Of a stretch of DNA of 64,000 nucleotides, positions 2,283 through 64,000 are shown piece after piece (positions within the stretch are counted from its first letter, which is position 1; each line of letters opens with the position of its first letter). Source of the stretch: Patescibacteria group bacterium (GTDB lineage: Bacteria > Patescibacteriota > Patescibacteriia > 2-01-FULL-39-33). The stretch is taken from positions 209,685 to 273,684 of the forward strand of contig JBAZKF010000001.1 of NCBI GenBank assembly GCA_041650895.1, in the 5' to 3' direction. The notes below the pieces were generated by a model. The model saw only the letters and a program-made list of their open reading frames with translations, was not told the DNA's origin and ran no database searches. The translations under genes were made by a program, and so were the position numbers.

Positions 2283-3431
2283 ATGAAAGTGCTATTTGTC
2301 ATAACTCAATCATCTTGGGGCGGAGCGCAAAAATATGTTTATACTTTTGCTCTAAATTTAGCCAAAAAAAATGATACTGAGGTCATAATAGCCGGTGGCG
2401 AGGAGTCAATCGGAGAATTAACGGCGAAATTGCAGGAAAAAGGCCTAAAATTTGTACCTCTTAAAAAACTAATGAGAAAAGTTAGTCTGCTTAATGATTT
2501 GTTAGCAGTCAAAGAGATAAAAACGCTGATTGAACAAGAACGACCGGACATTATCCACTTAAACAGCAGTAAGGCCGGAGCGGTAGGATCCTTGGCCGCC
2601 AGATTATCCCGTCATCGCGCCAAGGTGGTTTATACGGTGCACGGTTGGGTTTTCAATGAAAGCCTCAATCCCCTGGTCAAACTGTTTTATTTTTTGATAG
2701 AAAAATCATTTGCCGGCTTCAAGGACTGTTTTATCTGCCTATCCGATTTTGATCGGCAAGCCGGCCTTACAGCAAAAATCGCTCCCGCCGAAAAGTTAAT
2801 CACCATCCATAACGGCCTGGATTTGCCGGCTGATTATTTTTTGGATCAAGAGACGGCTCTAAATGAACTATTGGATACTAAACCCGCCGACGAAAATCGG
2901 CCGCTGATTATCGGGACTATTGCTAATTTTTATCCGGCTAAAGGATTAAATTATTTAATTGATACTGTCAGTCTCCTGCCGGCTGACGATTATAAACTGA
3001 TAATCATAGGCGAGGGAGGATTAAGAAACGAATTGGAGAGACAAATCAAGAAATTAAAATTAGAAAATAATTTAGAAAATAATATTATCCTGGCCGGTAA
3101 CAAACAAGAAGCCGCCAGATATCTGAAAGCCTTTGATCTGGCCGTAATGTCATCAGTCAAGGAGGGTCTGCCCTACTTCATACTAGAGGCTATGTCCGCC
3201 GGCTTGCCCGTCATAGCCACCAAAGTCGGGGGCATCCCCGAAACGATTGATGACGGAGTTACCGGTTATCTGGTTGACCCGCGATCACCCGGCCTGCTGG
3301 CGGAAAAAATAAAACTGCTGGCGGATAAAGAATTAAGAAAACGATTCGGCGAAGCGGGATTATCCAAGGTTAAAAAAGAATTCGGCCTAAGCCAAATGAT
3401 AGAAAAAACCTTGAAAGCCTACTCAAAATAA
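2283..3431 (+). CDS. Glycosyltransferase family 4
   Basis: 382 aa. N-terminal WGGAQKYV; C-terminal EGLPYFILEAMSAGLPVIATKVGGIPE. Confidence 0.8.
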   Translation: MKVLFVITQSSWGGAQKYVYTFALNLAKKNDTEVIIAGGEESIGELTAKLQEKGLKFVPLKKLMRKVSLLNDLLAVKEIKTLIEQERPDIIHLNSSKAGAVGSLAARLSRHRAKVVYTVHGWVFNESLNPLVKLFYFLIEKSFAGFKDCFICLSDFDRQAGLTAKIAPAEKLITIHNGLDLPADYFLDQETALNELLDTKPADENRPLIIGTIANFYPAKGLNYLIDTVSLLPADDYKLIIIGEGGLRNELERQIKKLKLENNLENNIILAGNKQEAARYLKAFDLAVMSSVKEGLPYFILEAMSAGLPVIATKVGGIPETIDDGVTGYLVDPRSPGLLAEKIKLLADKELRKRFGEAGLSKVKKEFGLSQMIEKTLKAYSK

Positions 3432-30877: not shown

Positions 30878-31021
30878 CGCCTTGCTCTTTTTCTCCTCCT
30901 CGAAATGTTCGGGGAGTTTTTTGTTCAAAAAGTAACCCTCTTGACAAACTCAATAACTGGCGCTATAATAAGCCAACAAGTTAACTGGAAATTTAAAACC
31001 GAAACGACAAGGAGAGAAACA

Positions 31022-44089: not shown

Positions 44090-44383
44090 TTATTCTTTCG
44101 ATTCTTCCGGCTTTTGTTCCGCCCGTTCCAGATAAAAGCTGTCCGGGCCTCTCATGCCGCTCAAGTATCTCTGCGACAATTTGTTCGCTTCCGGACTGTT
44201 CGTCCGTTTCATATCCACAGGCGAAGACTGCTGATCAACTGTCGCTGTCAGCGACTGTTGCTTTGCCCGCTGATTCTCCGCCTGGACATTTAGGATTGCC
44301 AGAATCAACATCAGGGGCGCCATAAGCGCCAAACTGATAACCAACGCTAACTTTTTCCGTTGCTGAGCTCTTCGTTTAAGCAT
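44090..44383 (-). CDS. Small membrane protein (~97 aa) in the GC-rich island; its start overlaps the stop of the upstream gene (ATGCTTAA)
   Basis: An AGGAG Shine-Dalgarno lies 6 nt before the ATG; sequence MLKRRAQQRKKLALVISLALMAPLMLILAIL... The longer track ORF (44090-44680) has a junk-like N-terminus. Confidence 0.45.
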   Translation of the reverse strand: MLKRRAQQRKKLALVISLALMAPLMLILAILNVQAENQRAKQQSLTATVDQQSSPVDMKRTNSPEANKLSQRYLSGMRGPDSFYLERAEQKPEESKE

Positions 44384-45212
44384 TTTCATCTCCTGTTTGT
44401 TGGGTTTGTTGAAGTACAGAATCTTGACTGACCTTCTCCACCCCCAGGAGGAAGAAGCCGACACAACCATTGCCATCCTCGCGCCAGCAGTCGCAGCCGA
44501 CCCCGCCAGTCGAGCTGAAGACGCCAGCGACGAGACGGCCGCCGACGAACAGGGTACCCGACGCCGCGTAGAGCAAGTCCAGCGGCACCCTTTCGCCAGA
44601 ACGCTTGAAATGCGCCAGAATGATGGCGAACAGGATTTGGATCGAACCGAAATAAGTGGCATGATCGCCAGGAAGCTCATAGCGCTTTTTGAGTTCGGCG
44701 CGGTGGGCTTCCATCGTCTTGATGTCTTTGCCAGTGCTTTTCGGAGCCAGGCGAGGCACCCAGAAGATGATCACGTCATCGGTCGGCGCGTCGTTGAAAT
44801 TCCAGCCCTGCAAATAGTTGAGATTGTTGTTGCAAGGGCCGACGATAGAAGCATGCTTCTTCAGTGTGAAACCCTGCTTGACAAGCCAGCTCACGGGCCC
44901 GCTGTAGTTCATCTCGGCCGCCAGCTTACGCCAAGGGGCGAGACGATCGGCGAACTGCGGGAACTGCTTCTGAAGCTCATTGTCCGATAGGGGCACGCAG
45001 AAAGTATTCGCGATCTCTTCGGCCACGAGTGCGCCACAGAACTTCTTCAATTTTCCGGAATTATCAGCCAACGCCAGCATCTCCTCATCACTGAGGCCAT
45101 TCAAAGCAGCCAAGAGGGCTGCCGCACTTGCCTTACGCTCTGCCATAACTTGCCTTTCCGCCTCTGTGAGGCAGTATTCCCAACCACTATGGCCAGGAAA
45201 GAAGCTGGGCAT
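44376..45212 (-). CDS. Hypothetical protein (278 aa) in the GC-rich island
   Basis: Coding region with clearly elevated GC; no recognised family. The opposite-strand ORF 44397-44990 is probably an antisense artefact. Confidence 0.5.
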   Translation of the reverse strand: MPSFFPGHSGWEYCLTEAERQVMAERKASAAALLAALNGLSDEEMLALADNSGKLKKFCGALVAEEIANTFCVPLSDNELQKQFPQFADRLAPWRKLAAEMNYSGPVSWLVKQGFTLKKHASIVGPCNNNLNYLQGWNFNDAPTDDVIIFWVPRLAPKSTGKDIKTMEAHRAELKKRYELPGDHATYFGSIQILFAIILAHFKRSGERVPLDLLYAASGTLFVGGRLVAGVFSSTGGVGCDCWREDGNGCVGFFLLGVEKVSQDSVLQQTQQTGDENA

Positions 45213-45493: not shown

Positions 45494-46345
45494 TTAATTT
45501 TTATTTTTTAACTTTTTTCTACCTTTAGATGATTGCAAAAAATTAATTCCATTAATCACTTTCTTACCAGTTTTTTGCTCTAATTCCAATCGCGCATTCT
45601 TAGCGATTCGTCCGCCCTTTTTGGCTGGAATTTTGTTTTCTTCCAAACCTTTTGTCGACATGGTTTCCGCAATCTGACGAGTGGATAATTCCGCCAAAGC
45701 CGTAAAAACAAGCTCCGCATCACTCATATGATCACGTAAGTTCTGTGTTTTTAATCCTTTTAATTTTTTATGATCTTTAACCGACAAATCACTCCACTCC
45801 TCGTGAATAATATTAGTCAAAATAGCGTATTCGTCTTGTTTCTTGACTTCATTATCTTTCCAATAGTCAGTCAGCTTATTCCTGATTTCCTGCCCCATCA
45901 TCCTTTGTTGGATCCATTGCTTGCTTCGGCCCATCCTCTGCCAATAATCACGACTGCGGTTGAGCGCTTTTTCGGGATCGGAGATTTCCTCTATTCTCTC
46001 ATAACCGACTTTAGCCAGCCAGAGCTTAATCGGTTCAGCTTTAGGCGACGGCACAGACTGAACTAGACGGAAAATAGTTTCTACATCAGCTGCATCAGTC
46101 AGATAAAACTTACCGTCAGAGGCCTCGAATTTCAGTTGGTGACAATTTGTCACCGACTCATTCCCCTCTTTTTTAAGCCTTTCTTTAAGCTTATTCCAAT
46201 ATTTTCTAGCTGTTTGATAATCATTCTGCTGAATTAACGCTTGAATAATATCAATTACAGAGAAATACCATTTTTCTTTTTTTTCATCGTAATGACGACG
46301 AATTTTTTGACCTTCAAAAATAGTAATCTGTTTATTATTTTCCAT
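45494..46345 (-). CDS. DNA-damage-inducible protein D (DinD)-like / Bro-N domain protein (mobile-element associated)
   Basis: Bro-N-like N-terminus ITIFEGQKIRRHYDEKKEKWYFSVIDIIQAL, then the DinD-like core KAEPIKLWLAKVGYERIEEISDPEKALNRSRDYWQRMGRSKQWIQQRMMGQEIRNKLTDYWKD. Confidence 0.65.
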   Translation of the reverse strand: MENNKQITIFEGQKIRRHYDEKKEKWYFSVIDIIQALIQQNDYQTARKYWNKLKERLKKEGNESVTNCHQLKFEASDGKFYLTDAADVETIFRLVQSVPSPKAEPIKLWLAKVGYERIEEISDPEKALNRSRDYWQRMGRSKQWIQQRMMGQEIRNKLTDYWKDNEVKKQDEYAILTNIIHEEWSDLSVKDHKKLKGLKTQNLRDHMSDAELVFTALAELSTRQIAETMSTKGLEENKIPAKKGGRIAKNARLELEQKTGKKVINGINFLQSSKGRKKLKNKN

Positions 46346-46643: not shown

Positions 46644-46725
46644 TGGGCCGGGAGGGATTCGAACCCCCGAAGGCAGAGCCAAGAGATTTACAGTCTCCCC
46701 CAGTTGACCACTTTGGTACCGACCC
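46644..46725 (-). tRNA. tRNA-Tyr (anticodon GUA), type II with a long variable arm
   Basis: Manual fold of the minus strand: acceptor GGGTCGG/CCGGCCC, anticodon stem GGAGA/TCTCT with loop CTGTAAA, variable arm TGGCTCTGCCTTC, T-arm GGGGG-TTCGAAT-CCCTC. Confidence 0.8.
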
Positions 46726-49368: not shown

Positions 49369-52300
49369 CTACCTCCCGATGCCGGTCCAGCCGAAAACGT
49401 CCTCAAAATTCTTCATAATAACCTGGAAGACAGATTCCTTTTCTTTGGGAGTAAGAATGGTGTAAACCTTGGAAACGGAGGAATTGCCGTTGGAATCAGC
49501 GCTGATGATCTTGAATTGGTAAATGGCGCCCGGTTCAAAATCGGTAATGACAATAATATGCTTGCGAGAGAAACTGGTATCCAAAGGAGTCTTGTTCCAC
49601 CTGTCTTCCGCTATAACGTCAGCGCCTTTCTGATAGTAAACCTGACCGGTAGCCGGTTCATTGCTTACCCAAGAGACAATGGTCTGGATGCTGGTTTTAC
49701 GGCCGGGAGAAATGGCTGACTCGGTCTGGACTTGCTCAATAACCGGCGGATAATTATCTCGACCAGTCTGGAAGTCCGGAATCTCTTTAGTGATGATATT
49801 ACCCTTGGCATCAGTGCTGGAGAGTTCTATTTTGTAGGTAACGCCGGATTCAAACTCATTAATCTGCATTTCATGAATGGTGGTATAGTTTTTATCGCCC
49901 GAAACTTTAATCTCATCCAATATCAAAATATTATTACGGTAAGGCGTGTACTTTACTTGAGAATTGGTTTCACCGGTAGTAAGCCATCTAAAAATAGCGG
50001 TGCGATCGTCTACGTTCTGTATATTATAACTGGAAATCTCTAATTCCTGAGGCCTGGTCTTGAAAGTAAAATCCTTGGATTTGGATAAAGCGCCGCCCAA
50101 AGCCATGGAACGGACTTGGTAATGATAGGTGGTCTCCGGCTGTAAATCATACAAGGACACGACGTGAAGATTGGTTTGTTCTTCGCTATTGCCGATAACT
50201 TGCAGATAGGCGTCATCTCCCTGTTTGGAATCATATTTGTCATCGGGAGCCAGAGCAACGAGAGAGTTAGATTCCTTATCGGTTGACCAGGAGACGGTGG
50301 CGGAATTGGCGGTAACAATGACTCGCGGTTCACCACCTAACAAGGGCGGAGGGACCATTTCGGAAAGCTGGCGGATAAGGTTGTATTGGGAAGCTATGGC
50401 AGCCTCCAGAGAGTTAATGGAAACACGCCCGGACATGGCTGAGATGAAAGAAGCGGCGCGAGACATGGCAGCGGAAAACATTGAGTCATTATCAGTGACA
50501 GAAGCGCTGGAATCGGTTAGACTGGCATCGGCCGGCAAGCCCAGAGCGTCAGTGGTGACAAAAGTAGCATCTTCAGAAGTGCCAAGGTTGCCGTTTTCGT
50601 CGATAGAATTGACCCGATAATGATAAAGGGTGGAGGGCTGGAGATTGACTAAGGTATTGCTGTGGCTGGTAACCAAATTAGCTCCATAAGAAGCGTTTTT
50701 ATAAGCAGTATCCAAACCGAATTGCACTATGCTGTTAGCGGTTTTACTCGTCACCCAGCTTACCACGGCGCTATCGCCGGAAATACTGGAAACACCAACC
50801 TTAGAAACAATCGGCTTACTGCGATCAATAGATGATCCCCCGCCTCCACCGCCGCAAACTACGCCAGCCGCCCCGGCAGCTTCGCCGGTCGCTTGGGCCT
50901 GGAGCTCTCGCAACAGAATAGCTGATTCCTGTGAGAGGGTTTCCAAAGTAGTAAAAGAATATTCCAAGGTGGAGGAAGCCTCATTGCCTGAATTATCAGT
51001 AGAAATAACTTTGTAATAATAGGTGGTGGAGGAAGATAAACTGGAGAGGACAATATTGTGGTTAGTGTTAAGATTGGTATCTTCGGAACTGAGCGTGTAA
51101 TTGTCCGACTCTGTACCGTAGACCACTTGGGAATCGGACATTTCATTGGTGGTCCAATTAATCAAAGCTTGGGTGTCAATGACGATGGTGGAAGTAACAT
51201 TATCAATAACCGGAGCGACATCATCGTAAGGAGTAGTGAAAGAGTAATAATCGCCGGCATTATTGTCAGTGGCCACACCGGAAGCGACATAGTAATAATA
51301 AATAGTGCCGCGACTAAGTCCGGTCAACGCGATTTCATGACTAGTAACCTCTTCTGTGCCGCCCAAGTGCTCAAAGGAGGCAAAATCGTCGGAAGAAGTG
51401 TAGTAAACATCGGAATCGGCAACAATATCAGTATTCCAAACAATGGTGGCGTTATTATTAGCCACATTGCTGGCGGTAACGTTGCTAATAACCGGCCCGG
51501 AAACAGTAGTGAAGGAATAACCATCGCCCTCATTGGTATTAACACCGGAAACAGATAAAGCATTCTGCGACTCCACAGTAAAATTATAAGTTCGTCCAGG
51601 CAACAAATCAGTCAAAATTACACGATGACGTCCGATGTTACTAACATCCTGAACCATAGTAAGAGAGCCAACGGCAGTATCAAAATCCTTACTAGGATCT
51701 AATGAATAATGGATATAGGAGTTGGCCAGTTCATTGGTATCCCATTCAATAGTGGCGGTCTGGGTGGTGGTCGCAACAACCTCCACATTAGTCAGGATGG
51801 GCGGATTGGGATTGGATCCGCCAACTCCATCAGCAGAATCATTGACAACATTAGTATAAAAAGAAGTATTACCACTAGTGTCCTCCGCATAAACGCGATA
51901 GTAATGGGTAGAATCCAAAACGAGATCCTGGTGGAAATAAAAATTAATGGCATTATCATCAATTAGATCAATTTCTTCATAATCTACGCCGTCTGTCGAA
52001 TGCTCTACATGGTAATACTTGAAAGTAGTAGAAGCCAAAGCCTTCCAGACGATAAATTCTTGATAGGCCGGTACAAGGGTATCGGAAACATCCTTAATTA
52101 TAATATTGTTAAGCGTATCTGGCGTAATAGCACTAGCAGTTGAAGTATTATTGTAGGCATCCTTGAACATAACATAAACCCGTTGGGGGTTAGTGGTCAG
52201 CATAATACTGCTGGTAGTATTGTAATCAATATAACTGCAACCGCTGTAAGAGCTACTTAAAGTTACGCACATCTGCAAACTATCCGAGTCATCAGTGGCG

Positions 52301-55300
52301 CTAAGCGCGAGGGAAGCCGGATAATTAGAATCATTAATTGTGGCGCCATGGGCGTTAACCAAGATCGGATAAGCGCCAGGAGTCGGATTAGCCACATCCA
52401 GAACAAACGAGGCGGTAGTAGTTACTGCGGTATTATTGCCACCCTCCAAATCATCCAAAGTTATCCTGATTTGCGTCTCGGCCGCATATTGACCATTAAG
52501 ACCATCATTTTTGGCATCCCAAAGAACGGTGTAAGTAGAGGTAACGGTAGCACTGACCGTGGTTGTGCCAAAACCGGCTAAAAGTCCAGTTGTACCAGAG
52601 GCATTAGAAAGACGATCGGTCGAGATAGCCGTCCATGATTCTCCCCCATTAATAGATCGTTCAAATGAGGCAATAACGCAATTAGGACAATTAACCCCGG
52701 AAGAAGCCGTATCAGGATCAACAATAGAATAAGTTAGTAATACCTTACCATCACTGGAACGTTGACTGGCGGTAACCGAGTCGCCGGTGAATTCAGGCGG
52801 GGCATTAACTACATAAGTAACAGTTACATCAGAAACACTAGGAGTAGAGGTCCCGCCGGAAGCCAGTATTATCCGATATTGGAAGTATTGATCATCCCCT
52901 CCCGACATTAATGGATGATTAGTATCAGTAATGGTAATGTTATTTTGATTATACTCAAAATAGTTATCACCGGTACAGCCCGCCTCAGTATCGCCGTAAC
53001 CGCACCAAGGAGCGCTCTCTATTGTTGAGGTAGAAGCGGAACTGCGAATTTGTAACTTAACATTATTCTGTGTAGAGGTGCCTGTAGCCGTCCAAGCGAT
53101 TTTGGGAATAATATTGCCTGAGGAACCAGAGTCGTAGATGGAGGAAATAAGAGTGTTAGAAATAGTACCGAGAGAAAACTTAGCAACATTGAGCGACCAG
53201 TTGCCTTGATTGGCCGTAATATTTAAACGATAATATCGATAGCTAGCCATTGAGCTTAAATTATACGTTCTAGTTTCTGAAGCCGACCAACTAGGCACAT
53301 TAGTTTGCGTATCCAAGATTGAAAAAGTAGAAAAATCATCATTTGAACCCTGCAATGTCCATGTTTTTGGAGCAAAATTATTCTCGCTAGATTGAGCTGT
53401 AACTCTATAAGAAACAACAGGAATAACTTGAGACATATCTATCTGAAGCCAGCCATATGTATTTGTTGGCGCCCACCTTGTTGCCACAGAGCCATCAAAA
53501 GCTTTATAAGCGGCGCGAGAAGCGTCATACTCACTATCAGCTGAAACGACGTAAGGTGAATGTGACGTATTTGAGGATAAATCACTTGGCGACACCGTGG
53601 TATAAACTATATGATTCCTATCATAGCTACTCCAATTAATCGTTACATCATTTAAGGTCGCAACAGAACTAACATCGTTAGAAGTGAAGGTGGCGCGGTA
53701 TTGAAAATAGCGTTTACCACTAAGCGAAGCATCAGGAGTGGAACCACTGCTAATAGCCGTCCAAGCCGACCAATTAACATCATCATCACCAGTCGGTGAA
53801 GCAGTAGTACCGGTACGAACTTGCATAGTAACTGCTGTAACCCCACCAGTAGTGGAAGCGTTCCAACTGAAAGTTCCAAGATTAACACTAGCGCCAAAAT
53901 CTTTGACTGCGGAAGTAAATGCTCCCGAATTGGTTCCAAGCTGATCGGCTGGAGTAGTGGTAGAATTCTTAAGGCAACGGACGGGCATACCATTCATTTT
54001 AAAATAACCACCATTAGTATAAACATATCGACCGCTACCAGTACCAATAAGACGATTCCATGCAACATTACTACTGTACTGAGTAGCTGACCAAATATAA
54101 GTAGAGGCATTACGTCCGTAATACACACCATTACTCCACCGACTGCCGGCAGCAGGAATTAAAAAACCGAGCGTTGTACTTGTCCTTAAAGCAGTGCCTT
54201 CAGTAGTACCCAAACCAACATTTACAGTAGTTATATCATAAGGAAAAGTTGAAAGGCAGGTCGCACTATCCTTACCTAATAAACCGCAAACCGATAACTC
54301 TAAAGTATTAACTTCATAATGAGTCGGCACATGCCAGCCAGTTGGACATATACCTTGCGGACCAGGAGCTTCGGTTACTGAAGAGGAGGTGGCATTAAGG
54401 CCACTTTTCATTATAGTAATCCATTGATACAGATAACCTAACTTGTTGGCGTCAGTGGCCGCGGCACAATCCTCGGCAGTGTTGGCAGTATTTCCAGGGC
54501 AAGAATAATAAGCAGTGCTCAAACTGGCCCAAGCGGCAGATGTTGAGGCACTATCACCTTTTACGATAGCGTCTCCATTGGGATAATAAATGGTTTGTAA
54601 ATTCTGACCCATCCAACATTGGCTAGCGATATTAGTAATGGGGTAAGTAATTGATTCCACGCCTCTAACATCGGTCATCGTAGTACCAGAACCGCAAGGC
54701 TGACAGGTCGTACTGCAACTTCCGCTGTTACAATCATTATTCTGAGTACAAGATGCGCCATTTGCTAAACTGCAATACCCGCCAACACAGGAGTTAAGGG
54801 CGCATTCAGTGCTTGTTGAGCAAGATGCTTTAGCGGCTTTTAACGCTATGACTGAGCCGCTACTGCTAACATAAACATTAGTAGAAGAACCGGCTGAAAA
54901 ATCAGCCGTCAAAGTATCTATAGTGGTAGAAGAATAAATTGCCAAAGCTACAGATGAAGAAGCTTCAATGCCATCGTCTTTGCTATAATATTTATTCCAA
55001 TTGGTCTTATCACCAGGATGGGTGGCGATGGTGGAAGTGGACGCTCCCCCGCTCCAATCGGTCTGCACCCAGGCAAAGGTAGCGGCCATAACCCGAGAGA
55101 CAAAAAAGAAGCTCAAACAGAGGATTAACACGGTCAAAGCGATTGAACTGACCATCGTGGCCGTAGTCGCCCGTTTTTTCTTAACATGATGAACCCACAA
55201 GGCTTCTTTAAGATACTCCTCACGAACAATATTTGCCTTTTGCCTATTATCAAAATTAATACCTAGCGGTTTGGCGCTACTAAAAAGTAAATTAAAGCCA

Positions 55301-55701
55301 GAATCAATGTCGTGAATCAACAAAATAAAATAATAAAGTAATTTAAAGCGGAAATAAGGGGAATTAAGTTTACTGAAATCCTGCACATTTTTTTGAATAT
55401 AATGATCGGAAAGTTGGGAAATGCCGGGAATAGAAACGCCATAGCGGTAAGAGAGGTAAATGAATATATTAGCTGATAACAAAACGAGCAGGAATATACT
55501 GCTCCATCTTAAAACTATAAGGGAAGCGACCATTAAACCGATGATAATAGTTAACAAAAAAATGTCCCACAATTTTGATTTGGAACTTAAGAAACTTAAG
55601 AAATTTTTGTTTGAAAATCGGTTCTTTACTCGGTTCTTTGCCATTAAAATAATATTATCCCTCAATAATACTTCTTCGATACTAAAATACTTCTTCAACA
55701 C
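49369..55701 (-). CDS. Giant surface protein (about 2110 aa): N-terminal TM segments, a Fib_succ_major-like domain, a discoidin/F5-8 type C-like domain and multiple FN3 domains
   Basis: Fib_succ_major-like QCWMGQNLQ...GYLYQW...CPTGWHVPTHYEVNTLEL; discoidin-like RWAPTNTYGWLQIDMS...; FN3-like NPPILTNVEVVATTTQTATIEWDTNE and repeats. The N-terminal ~200 aa (55100-55701) are AT-rich and low-complexity; a start at MVSSIALTVL... is possible. Confidence 0.7.
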   Translation of the reverse strand: MLKKYFSIEEVLLRDNIILMAKNRVKNRFSNKNFLSFLSSKSKLWDIFLLTIIIGLMVASLIVLRWSSIFLLVLLSANIFIYLSYRYGVSIPGISQLSDHYIQKNVQDFSKLNSPYFRFKLLYYFILLIHDIDSGFNLLFSSAKPLGINFDNRQKANIVREEYLKEALWVHHVKKKRATTATMVSSIALTVLILCLSFFFVSRVMAATFAWVQTDWSGGASTSTIATHPGDKTNWNKYYSKDDGIEASSSVALAIYSSTTIDTLTADFSAGSSTNVYVSSSGSVIALKAAKASCSTSTECALNSCVGGYCSLANGASCTQNNDCNSGSCSTTCQPCGSGTTMTDVRGVESITYPITNIASQCWMGQNLQTIYYPNGDAIVKGDSASTSAAWASLSTAYYSCPGNTANTAEDCAAATDANKLGYLYQWITIMKSGLNATSSSVTEAPGPQGICPTGWHVPTHYEVNTLELSVCGLLGKDSATCLSTFPYDITTVNVGLGTTEGTALRTSTTLGFLIPAAGSRWSNGVYYGRNASTYIWSATQYSSNVAWNRLIGTGSGRYVYTNGGYFKMNGMPVRCLKNSTTTPADQLGTNSGAFTSAVKDFGASVNLGTFSWNASTTGGVTAVTMQVRTGTTASPTGDDDVNWSAWTAISSGSTPDASLSGKRYFQYRATFTSNDVSSVATLNDVTINWSSYDRNHIVYTTVSPSDLSSNTSHSPYVVSADSEYDASRAAYKAFDGSVATRWAPTNTYGWLQIDMSQVIPVVSYRVTAQSSENNFAPKTWTLQGSNDDFSTFSILDTQTNVPSWSASETRTYNLSSMASYRYYRLNITANQGNWSLNVAKFSLGTISNTLISSIYDSGSSGNIIPKIAWTATGTSTQNNVKLQIRSSASTSTIESAPWCGYGDTEAGCTGDNYFEYNQNNITITDTNHPLMSGGDDQYFQYRIILASGGTSTPSVSDVTVTYVVNAPPEFTGDSVTASQRSSDGKVLLTYSIVDPDTASSGVNCPNCVIASFERSINGGESWTAISTDRLSNASGTTGLLAGFGTTTVSATVTSTYTVLWDAKNDGLNGQYAAETQIRITLDDLEGGNNTAVTTTASFVLDVANPTPGAYPILVNAHGATINDSNYPASLALSATDDSDSLQMCVTLSSSYSGCSYIDYNTTSSIMLTTNPQRVYVMFKDAYNNTSTASAITPDTLNNIIIKDVSDTLVPAYQEFIVWKALASTTFKYYHVEHSTDGVDYEEIDLIDDNAINFYFHQDLVLDSTHYYRVYAEDTSGNTSFYTNVVNDSADGVGGSNPNPPILTNVEVVATTTQTATIEWDTNELANSYIHYSLDPSKDFDTAVGSLTMVQDVSNIGRHRVILTDLLPGRTYNFTVESQNALSVSGVNTNEGDGYSFTTVSGPVISNVTASNVANNNATIVWNTDIVADSDVYYTSSDDFASFEHLGGTEEVTSHEIALTGLSRGTIYYYYVASGVATDNNAGDYYSFTTPYDDVAPVIDNVTSTIVIDTQALINWTTNEMSDSQVVYGTESDNYTLSSEDTNLNTNHNIVLSSLSSSTTYYYKVISTDNSGNEASSTLEYSFTTLETLSQESAILLRELQAQATGEAAGAAGVVCGGGGGGSSIDRSKPIVSKVGVSSISGDSAVVSWVTSKTANSIVQFGLDTAYKNASYGANLVTSHSNTLVNLQPSTLYHYRVNSIDENGNLGTSEDATFVTTDALGLPADASLTDSSASVTDNDSMFSAAMSRAASFISAMSGRVSINSLEAAIASQYNLIRQLSEMVPPPLLGGEPRVIVTANSATVSWSTDKESNSLVALAPDDKYDSKQGDDAYLQVIGNSEEQTNLHVVSLYDLQPETTYHYQVRSMALGGALSKSKDFTFKTRPQELEISSYNIQNVDDRTAIFRWLTTGETNSQVKYTPYRNNILILDEIKVSGDKNYTTIHEMQINEFESGVTYKIELSSTDAKGNIITKEIPDFQTGRDNYPPVIEQVQTESAISPGRKTSIQTIVSWVSNEPATGQVYYQKGADVIAEDRWNKTPLDTSFSRKHIIVITDFEPGAIYQFKIISADSNGNSSVSKVYTILTPKEKESVFQVIMKNFEDVFGWTGIGR

Positions 55702-56129: not shown

Positions 56130-57086
56130 TTAACGAAATTTAGCAAGTTTTAGCGCATCCATTTGCTTGATAATATGATCATCTGATAGCGAACGCAAAT
56201 AGCTTAATGTCATCTTGAAACTCCTATGTCCGAGCAATCCGTAAAGTCCAACCAAATCATTAGTCTGCATGTAATAATTAACCGCGAACGTGTGCCTGAA
56301 CCTGTGTACGTGGCAATTAATACCTGTTACCTCATTAAGATGATTAATCGTATGTTTAAGGCCATGCGCAGTATAACGGCAATCTTTGGTACTGGATACC
56401 CAAAACGCTTCGGTCGAATAATCTCTGCGGCAGTCCAAATATTCCTCAAGGAAAGGTAATAGTTCAAGCTTCAATGGTATATTACGTGTTCGCTTTGATT
56501 TTGATGTCTCGCCGCGCACAGTAACTACCTTCTCTCTCAAATTAACGTCTGACAAATTGAGGCCTAAGAACTCTCCTTTTCTGACTCCTGTTAGATTGAA
56601 AAACATAATCATGGCCAGATTTCTTTTTTTAAGCAGTTTATTCTCCCAGACGATATCTCTGCTGATGGCGACGTATATTTTGTCAAATTCTTCTTTAGTG
56701 AACGCCCGCTTGTCTGTATAACTGACGTCTGGCCAAGCAATGCCCTTAAACGGGTTTTTAGCCAGATACTTATTTTCAACCAACCACATAAAAAATGAGC
56801 TTAATTTACCTCTGATAGTGGCTATGCTTGAATTCTTCAGCGGCCGCACAACCAATTTGTTACCAACCATCCTTTCCCGGGTCTGCGCGAAATCAAAAAA
56901 ATCTACCATAAGGTCAGAATTCAAATCACTTAGTCTGACATCGGGTTTGAATTTTAGAAGCAACTCGAAACTATCGTGATAATTTCGGATCGTCGCTGTT
57001 GCTTTTCCCTCGGAACTTCTGCGTTGTTTAACAAAGGTTTCGAATAGTTCGACCAGACTGGCTTTATTCTTTTCTTTTTGAGTCAT
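56130..57086 (-). CDS. Phage-type tyrosine integrase
   Basis: HVHRFRHTFA...LLGHRSFKMTLSYLR (catalytic H-R-H-Y region) and an N-terminal SAM-like domain. The ATG at 57086 is preferred over the track's TTG at 57110. A TATAAT box and an 8-bp inverted repeat (CTATGATT/AATCATAG) sit at the 5' end. Confidence 0.85.
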   Translation of the reverse strand: MTQKEKNKASLVELFETFVKQRRSSEGKATATIRNYHDSFELLLKFKPDVRLSDLNSDLMVDFFDFAQTRERMVGNKLVVRPLKNSSIATIRGKLSSFFMWLVENKYLAKNPFKGIAWPDVSYTDKRAFTKEEFDKIYVAISRDIVWENKLLKKRNLAMIMFFNLTGVRKGEFLGLNLSDVNLREKVVTVRGETSKSKRTRNIPLKLELLPFLEEYLDCRRDYSTEAFWVSSTKDCRYTAHGLKHTINHLNEVTGINCHVHRFRHTFAVNYYMQTNDLVGLYGLLGHRSFKMTLSYLRSLSDDHIIKQMDALKLAKFR

Positions 57087-57180
57087 ATAAAAACTATGAT
57101 TATACTCCAATCATAGTTCTTATATAAAAAAGGGGTGACTCCTCTTAAATTCGGGCTTAAAGGGAGAATAAATAAACCAA

Positions 57181-62112: not shown

Positions 62113-62141
62113 TTGACATTTATCAAGATAAATGATATACT
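62113..62141 (+). promoter_or_regulatory. Near-consensus sigma-70 promoter: TTGACA, 17 bp, extended -10 TGaTATACT
   Basis: Hexamers and spacing counted directly; about 95 bp upstream of the ATG at 62234. Confidence 0.65.
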
Positions 62142-62233
62142 AACATGTTATTCCATTGTTGGAATTTCGTCCCTGTCCGGGATGGCTGTCGCCGAAAGGA
62201 CAAAGCACCCTGACAACAGGAAAGGAACACGTC

Positions 62234-62572
62234 ATGAATGAAGACGATGCAGTTATGATTGTCGGATATCTGACTCGCTCCAAGGCAATCTGGAAAGATC
62301 CAGTATTGCTCGCCCTCGTTGAATCGGCGCCAAGCCCCACGAAAGCGTTTGCTTTGGTTTTGCAAAAAACCGGAAGCCAGAAAAAGGCGAAAGCCGGTCG
62401 CTGGTACGCCTGCGCAATTAGGGATTTTGGCAAAGATTCACTTGGTGCACTCACCAAAGTTCTCCAGAGTCCGCAAGGTGCGGAAAAGCTGGAGGAGCTG
62501 ATTCTGACCACGTTCCCCGATTTATCGGAGGAGCAGGAAAGGAGAATGCCATGTACAGCGATCAGGCAGTAG
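62234..62572 (+). CDS. Hypothetical protein (112 aa), GC-rich
   Basis: A GGAAAGGA Shine-Dalgarno precedes the ATG at 62234 (MNEDDAVMIVGYL...). The track ORF started at 62156. Confidence 0.5.
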   Translation: MNEDDAVMIVGYLTRSKAIWKDPVLLALVESAPSPTKAFALVLQKTGSQKKAKAGRWYACAIRDFGKDSLGALTKVLQSPQGAEKLEELILTTFPDLSEEQERRMPCTAIRQ

Positions 62573-64000
62573 AAATAATCAAGAAGAATGGCAAGAAGAT
62601 GACGGCCGATCAATTAATGACGATTGGCCGGCAAGTCAACAACACCGGACGAGTGAAATATTTTGCCCGGGAAAAAGATTATCATAGCATGGATGGAAGG
62701 AAGTTTGATTACATCCCATATGACGCCTCTAATGGCGAATGCGAGGCATGGCTACCAATTGTTAAAACCGGCAAACTGTCCGCTGACCAACTAATGGAAG
62801 CTGGCAAAACAGCCCACGATTCGGATGTTTGGCGGGAAATTGTTAGCCAAGGAAAACTTTTGGCCGAGCAACTTTTGCAAGCAGGGATATCGGCCCATGA
62901 TTTCGATGTTTGGAGACAAGTCATTGCCTCGGGTAAATTATCAATCGAACAGCTGTTGAATGTTGGTCTTTATGACTCTCTCAAAAATCCGTTTTTTGTT
63001 CGCTGTAGCGACAGGCCAAATCCGTGGCGGCTCTGGTATGAGATTATCCAAACTGGCATGCTGTCAGCCGAACAACTGATGGACGTCGGCCGTCAGCTCA
63101 AGGACAACTGGGGATGGCGAATCATCGTCAAAACTGGCAAATTGTCTGCCGATCAGCTAATGGCGGCCGGACAGGAAGTCATCAAAACCGGCGACGATGA
63201 ACGCGAGATGTATGATAATCCCAAAACAAGAGGCCAGAAGCTTCAGAGTTGGCAGGTATGGATGGCTATCATCAAAACCTCTGAATTGTCGGCCGATCAA
63301 TTGATGATAGCTGGCAAGGAGGCGGCTCACAAGGACGTTTGGATTGAAATTGTCCGCACTGGCCGGCTTTCGCACCAACAACTCAAACAAGTGAGCGAAC
63401 TGGCCGAAGCGTTCGGAATCTACACGACCAACATCCAGTGGGCAGTTGAAAACCAAATTGACTGGAAGGCCATAACCACAAACGATCAACTCATTGAGGT
63501 CGGGTTGGCGGTCGAATGCTGGACGATTTGGTCGCGAGTCGCGGACAAACTTGACTGGTCCGGTCTTTCGGAAGAACAAATTCTGGAGATCGGCTTTAAG
63601 GCAGACAACAGCCGCGTCTGGGGCAAAGTCAATGCCAAGATTAATTGGGAGAAAAAATCTGTTAATAAACTCTTGGAACTTGGGCGTCGCGCCAACTATG
63701 ACTGGACTTGGTTCAGAATTATTGAAACCGGCAAGCTTACTGCCGAACAGTTGATGACTGCTGGCAGCGATGCCAATAGCTGTGAGGTTTGGCGTCATAT
63801 TGCCGAGACCGAAAAGCTCTCGCGGAAACAATTAGAACAAGCCGCCAAGCAGCTTAAGGATCGCTGGTTTTGGGATTGGCTTATAGTCAACAAGAGGGTG
63901 ACGTTGACTGGCTTGTCAGTGGATGAATTGTTGGAGCTCGGCTCGCTACTTAACAGCGAGCGTTACTGGCAGATGATTAACGAAGCGATCGGAAAAAAGT
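62551..64000 (+). CDS. Novel tandem-repeat protein (at least 483 aa, partial; runs off the window end) with ~27-28-aa repeats of the form I(V/I)xTGKLSA(D/E)QLMxAG...D..VW..I
   Basis: Hand translation from the ATG at 62551 (AAGGAG Shine-Dalgarno) finds no stop to 64000. It is absent from the track because it is incomplete. GC is well above the window average. Confidence 0.6.
   Translation, partial: MYSDQAVEIIKKNGKKMTADQLMTIGRQVNNTGRVKYFAREKDYHSMDGRKFDYIPYDASNGECEAWLPIVKTGKLSADQLMEAGKTAHDSDVWREIVSQGKLLAEQLLQAGISAHDFDVWRQVIASGKLSIEQLLNVGLYDSLKNPFFVRCSDRPNPWRLWYEIIQTGMLSAEQLMDVGRQLKDNWGWRIIVKTGKLSADQLMAAGQEVIKTGDDEREMYDNPKTRGQKLQSWQVWMAIIKTSELSADQLMIAGKEAAHKDVWIEIVRTGRLSHQQLKQVSELAEAFGIYTTNIQWAVENQIDWKAITTNDQLIEVGLAVECWTIWSRVADKLDWSGLSEEQILEIGFKADNSRVWGKVNAKINWEKKSVNKLLELGRRANYDWTWFRIIETGKLTAEQLMTAGSDANSCEVWRHIAETEKLSRKQLEQAAKQLKDRWFWDWLIVNKRVTLTGLSVDELLELGSLLNSERYWQMINEAIGKK

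Follow-up and report, generated by a model that had tools for sequence, protein, structure and literature searches.

What do the two overlapping genes at the 3′ end of a 64,000-nucleotide (nt) stretch of a Patescibacteria group bacterium genome (contig JBAZKF010000001.1; hereafter the window) encode, and do their products act together? The locus is a genuine, self-contained two-gene operon, extending from a promoter at 62113 through gene 1 (62234–62572) and gene 2 (62551–64005) to a terminator located just past the window end. Gene 2 encodes a protein of tryptophan-anchored repeats, predicted to fold as an alpha-solenoid. Gene 1, overlooked in the initial annotation of this DNA, encodes a small conserved protein and proved to be the most informative part of the locus. 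Reading the operon as a whole, we consider it reasonably probable that gene 1 encodes an adaptor and gene 2 a solenoid that serves as a binding scaffold, with both products in a complex. Both genes are under purifying selection, with ratios of nonsynonymous to synonymous divergence (dN/dS) of 0.23 for gene 2 and 0.28 for gene 1. The operon and the features discussed with it are located as follows.

62113–62141, plus strand: sigma-70-type promoter, with the −35 box TTGACA at 62113–62118, a 17-nt spacer and the extended −10 box TGaTATACT at 62133–62141
62150–62165, no strand assigned: perfect palindrome ATTCCA-ttgt-TGGAAT, read from the sequence; candidate operator or 5′ hairpin
62234–62572, plus strand: gene 1, a 112-residue (aa) predicted all-helical protein with a conserved module of ~95 aa; Shine-Dalgarno sequence AAAGGA at 62221–62226
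62539–62544, plus strand: Shine-Dalgarno sequence AAGGAG of gene 2, within the 3′ end of gene 1, read from the sequence
62551–64000 in the window, plus strand: gene 2, a predicted helical-repeat protein with Trp-anchored 27-residue units; the window covers 483 of its 484 codons
62749–64000, plus strand: main repeat array of gene 2, defined by the unit table, the column profile and a half-versus-half hidden Markov model (HMM) test
63250–63327, plus strand: 26-codon segment (aa 234–259) absent from the ortholog P0002 in protein and DNA alignments
63157–63831, minus strand: antisense open reading frame (ORF) of 224 aa, spurious, its frame not being kept open in contig L002

The promoter matches the consensus at 11 of 12 positions and carries in addition a TG at −15/−14. 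Sites with at most one mismatch numbered three in the 64 kb, the operon promoter among them, against 0.49 expected; a perfect sigma-70 consensus (TTGACA-17-TATAAT) lies at 30941–30969 on the plus strand. Gene 1 and gene 2 overlap by 22 nt (62551–62572), an arrangement that, with the Shine-Dalgarno sequence of gene 2 located inside gene 1, suggests translational coupling of gene 2. An intrinsic terminator, consisting of a 12-bp GC-rich hairpin and a T-run, follows gene 2 at window-equivalent 64025–64054. Window-equivalent positions refer to L001, a public Logan contig identical to the window at 3057 of 3057 shared bases (window coordinate = L001 coordinate + 60943). A second genome (contig L002) retains the same gene pair, with an identical overlap and with its promoter and terminator, at a synonymous divergence (dS) of ~1. 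Similarity between the window and L002 starts at the −35 box and ends just after the terminator, with unrelated flanks on both sides; the L002 promoter has the same two hexamers at the same distance of 17 nt, with a diverged spacer sequence. The identical hexamers, the shared overlap and the single terminator bear out the initial proposal that this promoter drives a two-gene unit.

The palindrome directly downstream of the −10 box is likewise identical in L002, and more distant gene-1 loci carry other short palindromes at the equivalent place. We rejected a structured 5′ untranslated region (UTR) or riboswitch: the Rfam scan of the window returned two tRNAs and nothing else, folding of the 5′UTR is not unusual overall (z-scores of −0.7 and −1.6), and in the more distant gene-1 loci the UTR is not conserved beyond the ribosome-binding site.

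The frame that the initial annotation had read from the ATG at 62551, behind an AAGGAG Shine-Dalgarno sequence, is indeed open for 483 codons to base 64000, with no stop. Its description as an incomplete ORF of at least 483 aa holds only in that the frame runs off the window. Extension of the contig, which had been proposed as a check, completes it: both L001 and the deposited protein P0001 (MFA5124461.1, 484 aa, deposited as ‘MAG: hypothetical protein WC473_01360 [Patescibacteria group bacterium]’) show the last codon and the stop, which ends 5 nt beyond the window, at window-equivalent 64005, and precedes the terminator. The product has a mass of 55.7 kDa and no signal peptide, and would be soluble under the explanation we prefer.

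Among 5.8 billion clustered proteins searched, the sole close homolog of gene 2 was P0002 (458 aa, 65% identical), which is encoded on L002 behind the same upstream gene as in the window. Codon alignment of the two gave a dN/dS of 0.23 at a dS of ~1.0, with 178 of 368 nucleotide differences at third codon positions. Judged by this substitution pattern, gene 2 is a real protein-coding gene; a pseudogene or truncated ORF was rejected on account of the purifying selection and of the stop 5 nt past the window. The antisense ORF at 63157–63831, already suspected of being spurious, was rejected as a true gene because its frame is open for no more than 91 aa in L002 and the substitutions fit the plus-strand frame.

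Gene 2 consists of ~15 Trp-anchored units with a period of 27 aa and variants of 30–32 aa, arranged along the protein as listed below (all on the plus strand).

aa 6–32 (62566–62646): N-terminal cap unit without a leading Trp, from the unit table
starts at aa 67, 94, 121, 162, 189, 237, 264, 387 and 414: nine 27-residue units, placed by Trp anchoring
starts at aa 297, 327 and 357: three 30-residue variants, placed by Trp anchoring
start at aa 441: one 32-residue variant, placed by Trp anchoring
start at aa 473: C-terminal half unit, placed by Trp anchoring
aa 33–66, 148–161 and 216–236: three non-repeat insertions, from the unit table

In the 27-residue units W1, Q14 and L15 are invariant and I4, T7, G8, L10, S11 and G19 nearly so, with positions 2, 3, 6, 17 and 20–27 variable; Trp accounts for 24 residues, or 5%, of the protein. 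An HMM built from the five units in residues 67–215 scored residues 237–484 at 79.5 bits, compared with −0.1 ± 1.0 bits (maximum 5.0) for 500 shuffles of the same segment. The degenerate repeats of ~28 aa reported initially are therefore real, though their period is 27 aa with 30- and 32-aa variants. At the DNA level the copies are 61–73% identical, with a spacing of 81 nt where adjacent, and TRF found no tandem array in gene 2, which argues for an old repeat maintained at the protein level; a recent tandem duplication of DNA was rejected on the same grounds. The segment missing from P0002 (26 residues) is essentially one repeat unit, so the number of repeats varies between orthologs.

AlphaFold2, supplied with a two-sequence alignment, modelled gene 2 as an all-alpha protein with 29 helices of 6–16 residues, mostly 9–11 (mean predicted local distance difference test score (pLDDT) 79, predicted template-modelling score (pTM) 0.58). 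Each repeat forms one helix-loop-helix in the model, with helix A (~xDVWxxIVx), the loop TGKLS and helix B (AEQLMEAGKxA). The segments with pLDDT below 50 (residues 33–61, 143–157 and 214–225) coincide with the three insertions, which also show the highest nonsynonymous divergence between the orthologs. Foldseek comparison of the model with the PDB returned alpha-solenoids only (E 1e-5 to 1e-2, probability up to 1.0), namely designed helical-repeat proteins, consensus TPR arrays, subunits of APC/C and TPR domains of OGT. The template-modelling (TM) scores did not exceed 0.27 to any solved structure; the local architecture alone is therefore shared, no specific solved family is indicated, and the global superhelix is unreliable. 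With paired helices, one pair per 27-aa unit, the gene 2 product is predicted to belong to the alpha-solenoid class, and the model and its solenoid-only matches thus agree with the initial suggestion of such a fold.

The sequence of the repeat, by comparison, matched no described family. The gene 2 protein gave nothing above noise in Pfam-A, NCBIfam, PADLOC and PHROGs. Searches of PDB sequences with gene 2 (phmmer) and with a 31-row repeat profile yielded no match, solenoid repeat families included (best E 0.076, over 17 residues). The search for the repeat consensus proposed initially was run with a 54-position two-unit profile, built from the units of the window and its ortholog, exhaustively against 1.84 billion representative proteins. 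It retrieved 83 clusters at 50% identity with E ≤ 1e-3, 43 of them at ≤ 1e-10 and 5 at ≤ 1e-30; a further homology search with this profile, run on a k-mer index, contributed just two fragments. Two of the profile matches, P0080 and P0084, are obvious false positives. The other members inspected are 44–437 aa long, nearly all of them between 70 and 430 aa (the two-repeat proteins P0065 and P0074 have ~70 aa), and consist almost wholly of the same units, commonly alternating the 27-aa pattern W..I..TGKLS..QL..IG.......V with the 30-aa pattern W..I...LDW..LS..QL..IG, and contain several units of the form W-x2-[IV]-x3-5-G-x-L-[ST]-x2-Q-[LM]-x3-G-x7-8 (‘W-27’). When 60 members were compared with Pfam-A (hmmscan, E ≤ 10, with sensitivity limited by the program’s filters), TPR, HEAT, ARM, ankyrin, Sel1, PPR, LRV and DUF4116 were absent from the 25 most frequent of the 95 families matched, and the same families were absent from the per-protein Pfam tables of P0001 and ten other members. 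The commonest weak match was DUF3046, below threshold in 5 of the 60. We found no description of the repeat family or of the gene 1 family in the literature. On these profile comparisons, the repeat is a small, undescribed sequence family inside a well-known structural class, small because only 83 clusters occur among 1.84 billion proteins. The repeat was initially called novel, and it does lie outside the Pfam, NCBIfam and PDB families, but it is no orphan, given these clusters and a protein that had already been deposited.

Gene 1 belongs to a family of its own, with homologs in ~50 clusters that are 54–88% identical over ~95 residues. Against ten other loci its dN/dS is 0.06–0.19, with dS saturated. 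The few other genes common to the window and the gene-1 loci (candidate orthologs) are just 30–38% identical; by this measure gene 1 is a strongly conserved component of the operon, more so than the other genes shared with the window. An AlphaFold2 model from a 50-sequence alignment is a bundle of seven short helices (pLDDT 81, pTM 0.72). No family was found for gene 1 in Pfam, NCBIfam, PADLOC, PHROGs, the PDB sequences or the PDB profile search, and Foldseek comparison of the model with the PDB and BFVD gave no significant match. The top Foldseek entries in both databases were fragments of GyrA/ParC, non-significant at E ~1–2 and TM ~0.3.

What changes between the gene-1 loci of Patescibacteria genomes is the gene that follows. 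Every locus examined with readable downstream sequence has a partner, located at −22 to +28 nt or fused to gene 1, and the identity of this partner differs between loci. All-against-all BLAST sorted the partners into ~12 unrelated clusters. The solenoid is the partner in the window and L002 only; membrane proteins occupy the position in L003, L021 and L022, and small proteins in L010 and L019. One larger cluster is united by a ‘WQWRD’ domain at the C-terminus, often preceded by a receiver-like N-terminal part (Response_reg at E ~0.01, below threshold). In two loci the modules are joined in frame: in L020 (1543–3204) gene 1 continues into a domain that shares 52% identity (E 2e-162) with the separately encoded partner of L015, and in L018 (3479–4261) into one that matches the L021 partner (E 3e-9). 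These Rosetta-stone fusions, together with the tight coupling elsewhere, argue that the gene 1 product works physically with the protein encoded downstream.

A mechanism can be proposed on this basis. The conserved Trp, Gln-Leu and Gly positions of gene 2 would most likely form the core and the turns of the solenoid, and its variable positions a long surface for binding another macromolecule. Gene 1 would be the constant adaptor of the complex and the solenoid the variable partner of this lineage, the solenoid supplying an extended binding surface that gene 1 would link to a conserved cellular component. The N-terminal cap, a very strongly conserved part of gene 2 (nonsynonymous divergence, pN, of 0.04 over codons 1–30), might, speculatively, be the docking site. 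More tentatively, and as a possibility that we rate clearly below the adaptor–scaffold reading of this operon, gene 1 could be the hallmark of a cassette system in Patescibacteria that has yet to be described, one of ‘constant adaptor, variable partner’ type, in which interchangeable partners would be docked onto one conserved cellular target in a polymorphic conflict, effector or signalling role.

The divergence between the window and L002 is uneven in a way that bears on such swapping. Synonymous divergence is 2–4 times lower in the 5′UTR, gene 1 and the first ~30 codons of gene 2 (window 62140–62650 against L002 290–790) than in the rest of gene 2, with synonymous differences per site (pS) of 0.10–0.38 and a dS of 0.25–0.28 in the gene 1 windows, and a pS of 0.34–0.75 and a dS of ~1.0 in those of gene 2. 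A possible cause is gene conversion or recombination affecting the constant module, which would fit cassette swapping; another is a constraint on synonymous sites.

Several points weigh against the adaptor–scaffold reading. Just two operons of this exact type occur in the databases searched, and the complex of the two products is one that we infer from sequence. No ligand, enzymatic domain or conserved neighbourhood was found that indicates a process. The solenoid model derives from 2 sequences at a pTM of 0.58, with a global superhelix that the TM-scores mark as unreliable; AlphaFold2 can be over-confident on repeat sequences and is reported to over-predict some repeat folds (PMC11795689). 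Finally, the repeat-family loci L025, L026 and L027 have no gene-1 homolog upstream, and the solenoid therefore does not need gene 1 in general.

This last point opens the question of whether the two genes are neighbours by chance. The repeat family is represented in Candidatus Nomurabacteria (P0060) and other metagenomic genomes, its members usually being encoded alone and in unrelated neighbourhoods, as would be expected if gene 2 were an ordinary stand-alone scaffold with no functional link to gene 1. One locus, L027 (1935–5281), carries two adjacent paralogs of 309 and 673 aa in a genome that also has COX1, COX3 and UbiA, so the repeat family is not confined to Patescibacteria. Incidental adjacency is nevertheless difficult to reconcile with the retention of the pair, its 22-nt overlap, its promoter and its terminator in the second genome at a dS of ~1, or with the coupled or fused partner of every gene-1 homolog examined for which downstream sequence is readable, and we consider it highly improbable. 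Since other repeat-family members lack a nearby gene 1, the window operon instead joins two otherwise independent families.

The fused loci and the solenoid fold also invite a different functional interpretation. Helical-repeat proteins are common host-targeting effectors, and Patescibacteria are largely episymbionts, so that the solenoid might be exported to the host bacterium, with gene 1 acting as a conserved secretion adaptor in an effector and chaperone or targeting module. A conserved N-terminal module that carries variable C-terminal or downstream modules, with fused forms among them, would suit this role. Yet gene 2 has neither a signal peptide nor a known trafficking domain, secretion-system genes are absent near the locus, and the terminator directly follows gene 2, with no immunity-like gene in between. 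Some repeat-family members moreover lie in a genome with cytochrome oxidase genes that appears free-living. Export to a host is accordingly a very unlikely explanation in our judgement.

Conflict between genetic elements is the remaining alternative, and the surroundings of the cassettes bear on it. In the window, a tyrosine recombinase gene (Phage_integrase) lies at 56133–57110 on the minus strand and a second one ~4 kb past the window end (L001 7257–8219, window-equivalent 68200–69162); the two bracket ~13 kb that contain the operon. A small gene resembling helix-turn-helix or small terminase proteins (L001 4012–4467) lies between the operon and the second recombinase. In L010 (3076–6058), L011 and L017, from metagenome-assembled genomes labelled ‘Saccharibacteria’, a gene-1 cassette with a 130-aa partner sits between grpE and dnaK, and in L011 an integrase gene lies just upstream of grpE. 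In L012 (2915–3773) and L013 (220–2628) a SocA_Panacea (antitoxin-domain) gene pair and a serine recombinase (resolvase) adjoin, immediately upstream and in divergent orientation, a gene-1 cassette whose partner is a receiver-like protein of 502 aa.

Such contexts near mobile and defence-type genes are compatible with a toxin–antitoxin-like or conflict cassette, in which gene 1, like the Panacea antitoxin domain, would neutralise or regulate promiscuously, and the downstream genes, the solenoid included, would be effectors. The same reading could account for a bicistronic operon whose small first gene overlaps the second, and for one conserved module with ~12 unrelated partner families, the signature of Panacea (PMC8832971, PMC10440598). 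The domain scans speak against it: in gene 1, gene 2 and the other partners scanned (8–9 per library), no toxin, trafficking or defence domain was found with Pfam, NCBIfam or PADLOC, and gene 2 is a pure alpha-solenoid, in prediction, without obvious toxic activity. Gene 1 is also unusually conserved for an antitoxin, as its dN/dS and its identity between loci indicate; each species genome yielded a single gene-1 locus, and a search of IMG/VR viral contigs returned none. We therefore regard a conflict role as rather unlikely, though less so than incidental adjacency or export to a host, and retain an adaptor with a solenoid scaffold as the preferred account of the operon.

Mobility of the locus is a separate matter from its function. 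The initial annotation had called the region clearly richer in GC than the window average and probably acquired horizontally. The GC content of gene 2 (0.484) and gene 1 (0.512) does exceed the mean of the window genes (0.435, standard deviation (SD) 0.046), as does GC at third codon positions (GC3) in gene 2 (0.557 against 0.462 ± 0.082), but the excess of gene 2 is only about one SD. Gene 2 ranks 7–8 in GC and GC3 among ~53 window genes, a comparison that covers 64 kb of a 958-kb contig, and other 1-kb windows of the stretch reach 0.50–0.525. The apparent contrast arises mainly because the adjoining block at 56–62 kb is unusually AT-rich (gene GC 0.34–0.40). Strong compositional evidence for horizontal transfer was accordingly rejected, and the claim, plausible in itself, rests on context, that is, on the recombinase genes and on the unrelated flanks in L002. 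Both mobility genes and differing flanks, as looked for in a genomic island, were found here. The arrangement suggests that the cassette sits in a variable, recombinase-rich region and is likely able to relocate; recent acquisition from a distant donor is unproven.

Elsewhere in the window, the ORF with the highest GC (44379–45212, minus strand; GC 0.559, GC3 0.66) has no Pfam match and adjoins a gene with a Bro-N domain (45497–46345) and a tRNA (46644–46725, minus strand); the segment 44379–46725 may be another mobile-element remnant. An ORF of 2110 aa at 49372–55701 (minus strand) contains Fn3, F5/8 type C, Fib_succ_major and purple-acid-phosphatase N-terminal domains and probably encodes a giant surface protein.

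The small genomes of Patescibacteria encode a great many proteins without a known function, and the locus offers two concrete handles on them. The 27-residue Trp-anchored repeat, absent from Pfam and the PDB, constitutes a new sequence family of predicted alpha-solenoids, of relevance to structural biologists and designers of repeat proteins. A conserved small protein tied to changing partners usually marks the adaptor of a modular system, whether in toxin–antitoxin pairs, effector delivery or signalling; if the target of the adaptor were found, it would at one stroke supply a functional context for ~12 families of uncharacterised proteins.

Comparison with known systems places both genes near familiar types. 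With TPR arrays and designed helical repeats, gene 2 shares, in its predicted structure, a tandem helix-loop-helix stack whose hydrophobic core is conserved and whose surface varies; its repeat has 27 residues, an invariant Trp and a TGKLS loop, as against the 34 residues of TPR. HEAT-like, LRV and DUF4116-type repeats are alpha/alpha units with periods of 24–31 residues, and the gene 2 repeat resembles the short forms in its period, acidic turn, hydrophobic helix, Gly loop and Leu-x-x-x-x-Leu spacing, though these families are not among the Pfam families listed for its members. Polymorphic toxin systems combine a constant N-terminal module with diversified C-terminal modules (PMC3482391). In the window, unlike in those systems, the modules are separate genes, with no trafficking or toxin domain detected and no immunity gene downstream; L018 and L020, with their fusions of gene 1 and the variable part, are closer to them. 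Of the features of type II toxin–antitoxin operons, the overlap and the swapping of partners are present, and a recognisable toxin or antitoxin domain is absent. A further parallel is Panacea (PanA), a hyperpromiscuous antitoxin domain found in bicistronic operons with many unrelated partners, often in mobile contexts (PMC8832971, PMC10440598). Gene 1 differs from it in having no SocA_Panacea/DUF4065 match, in partners that match no known toxin and in being far more conserved than a typical antitoxin, and resembles it as a conserved small protein encoded in bicistronic operons with many unrelated partners.

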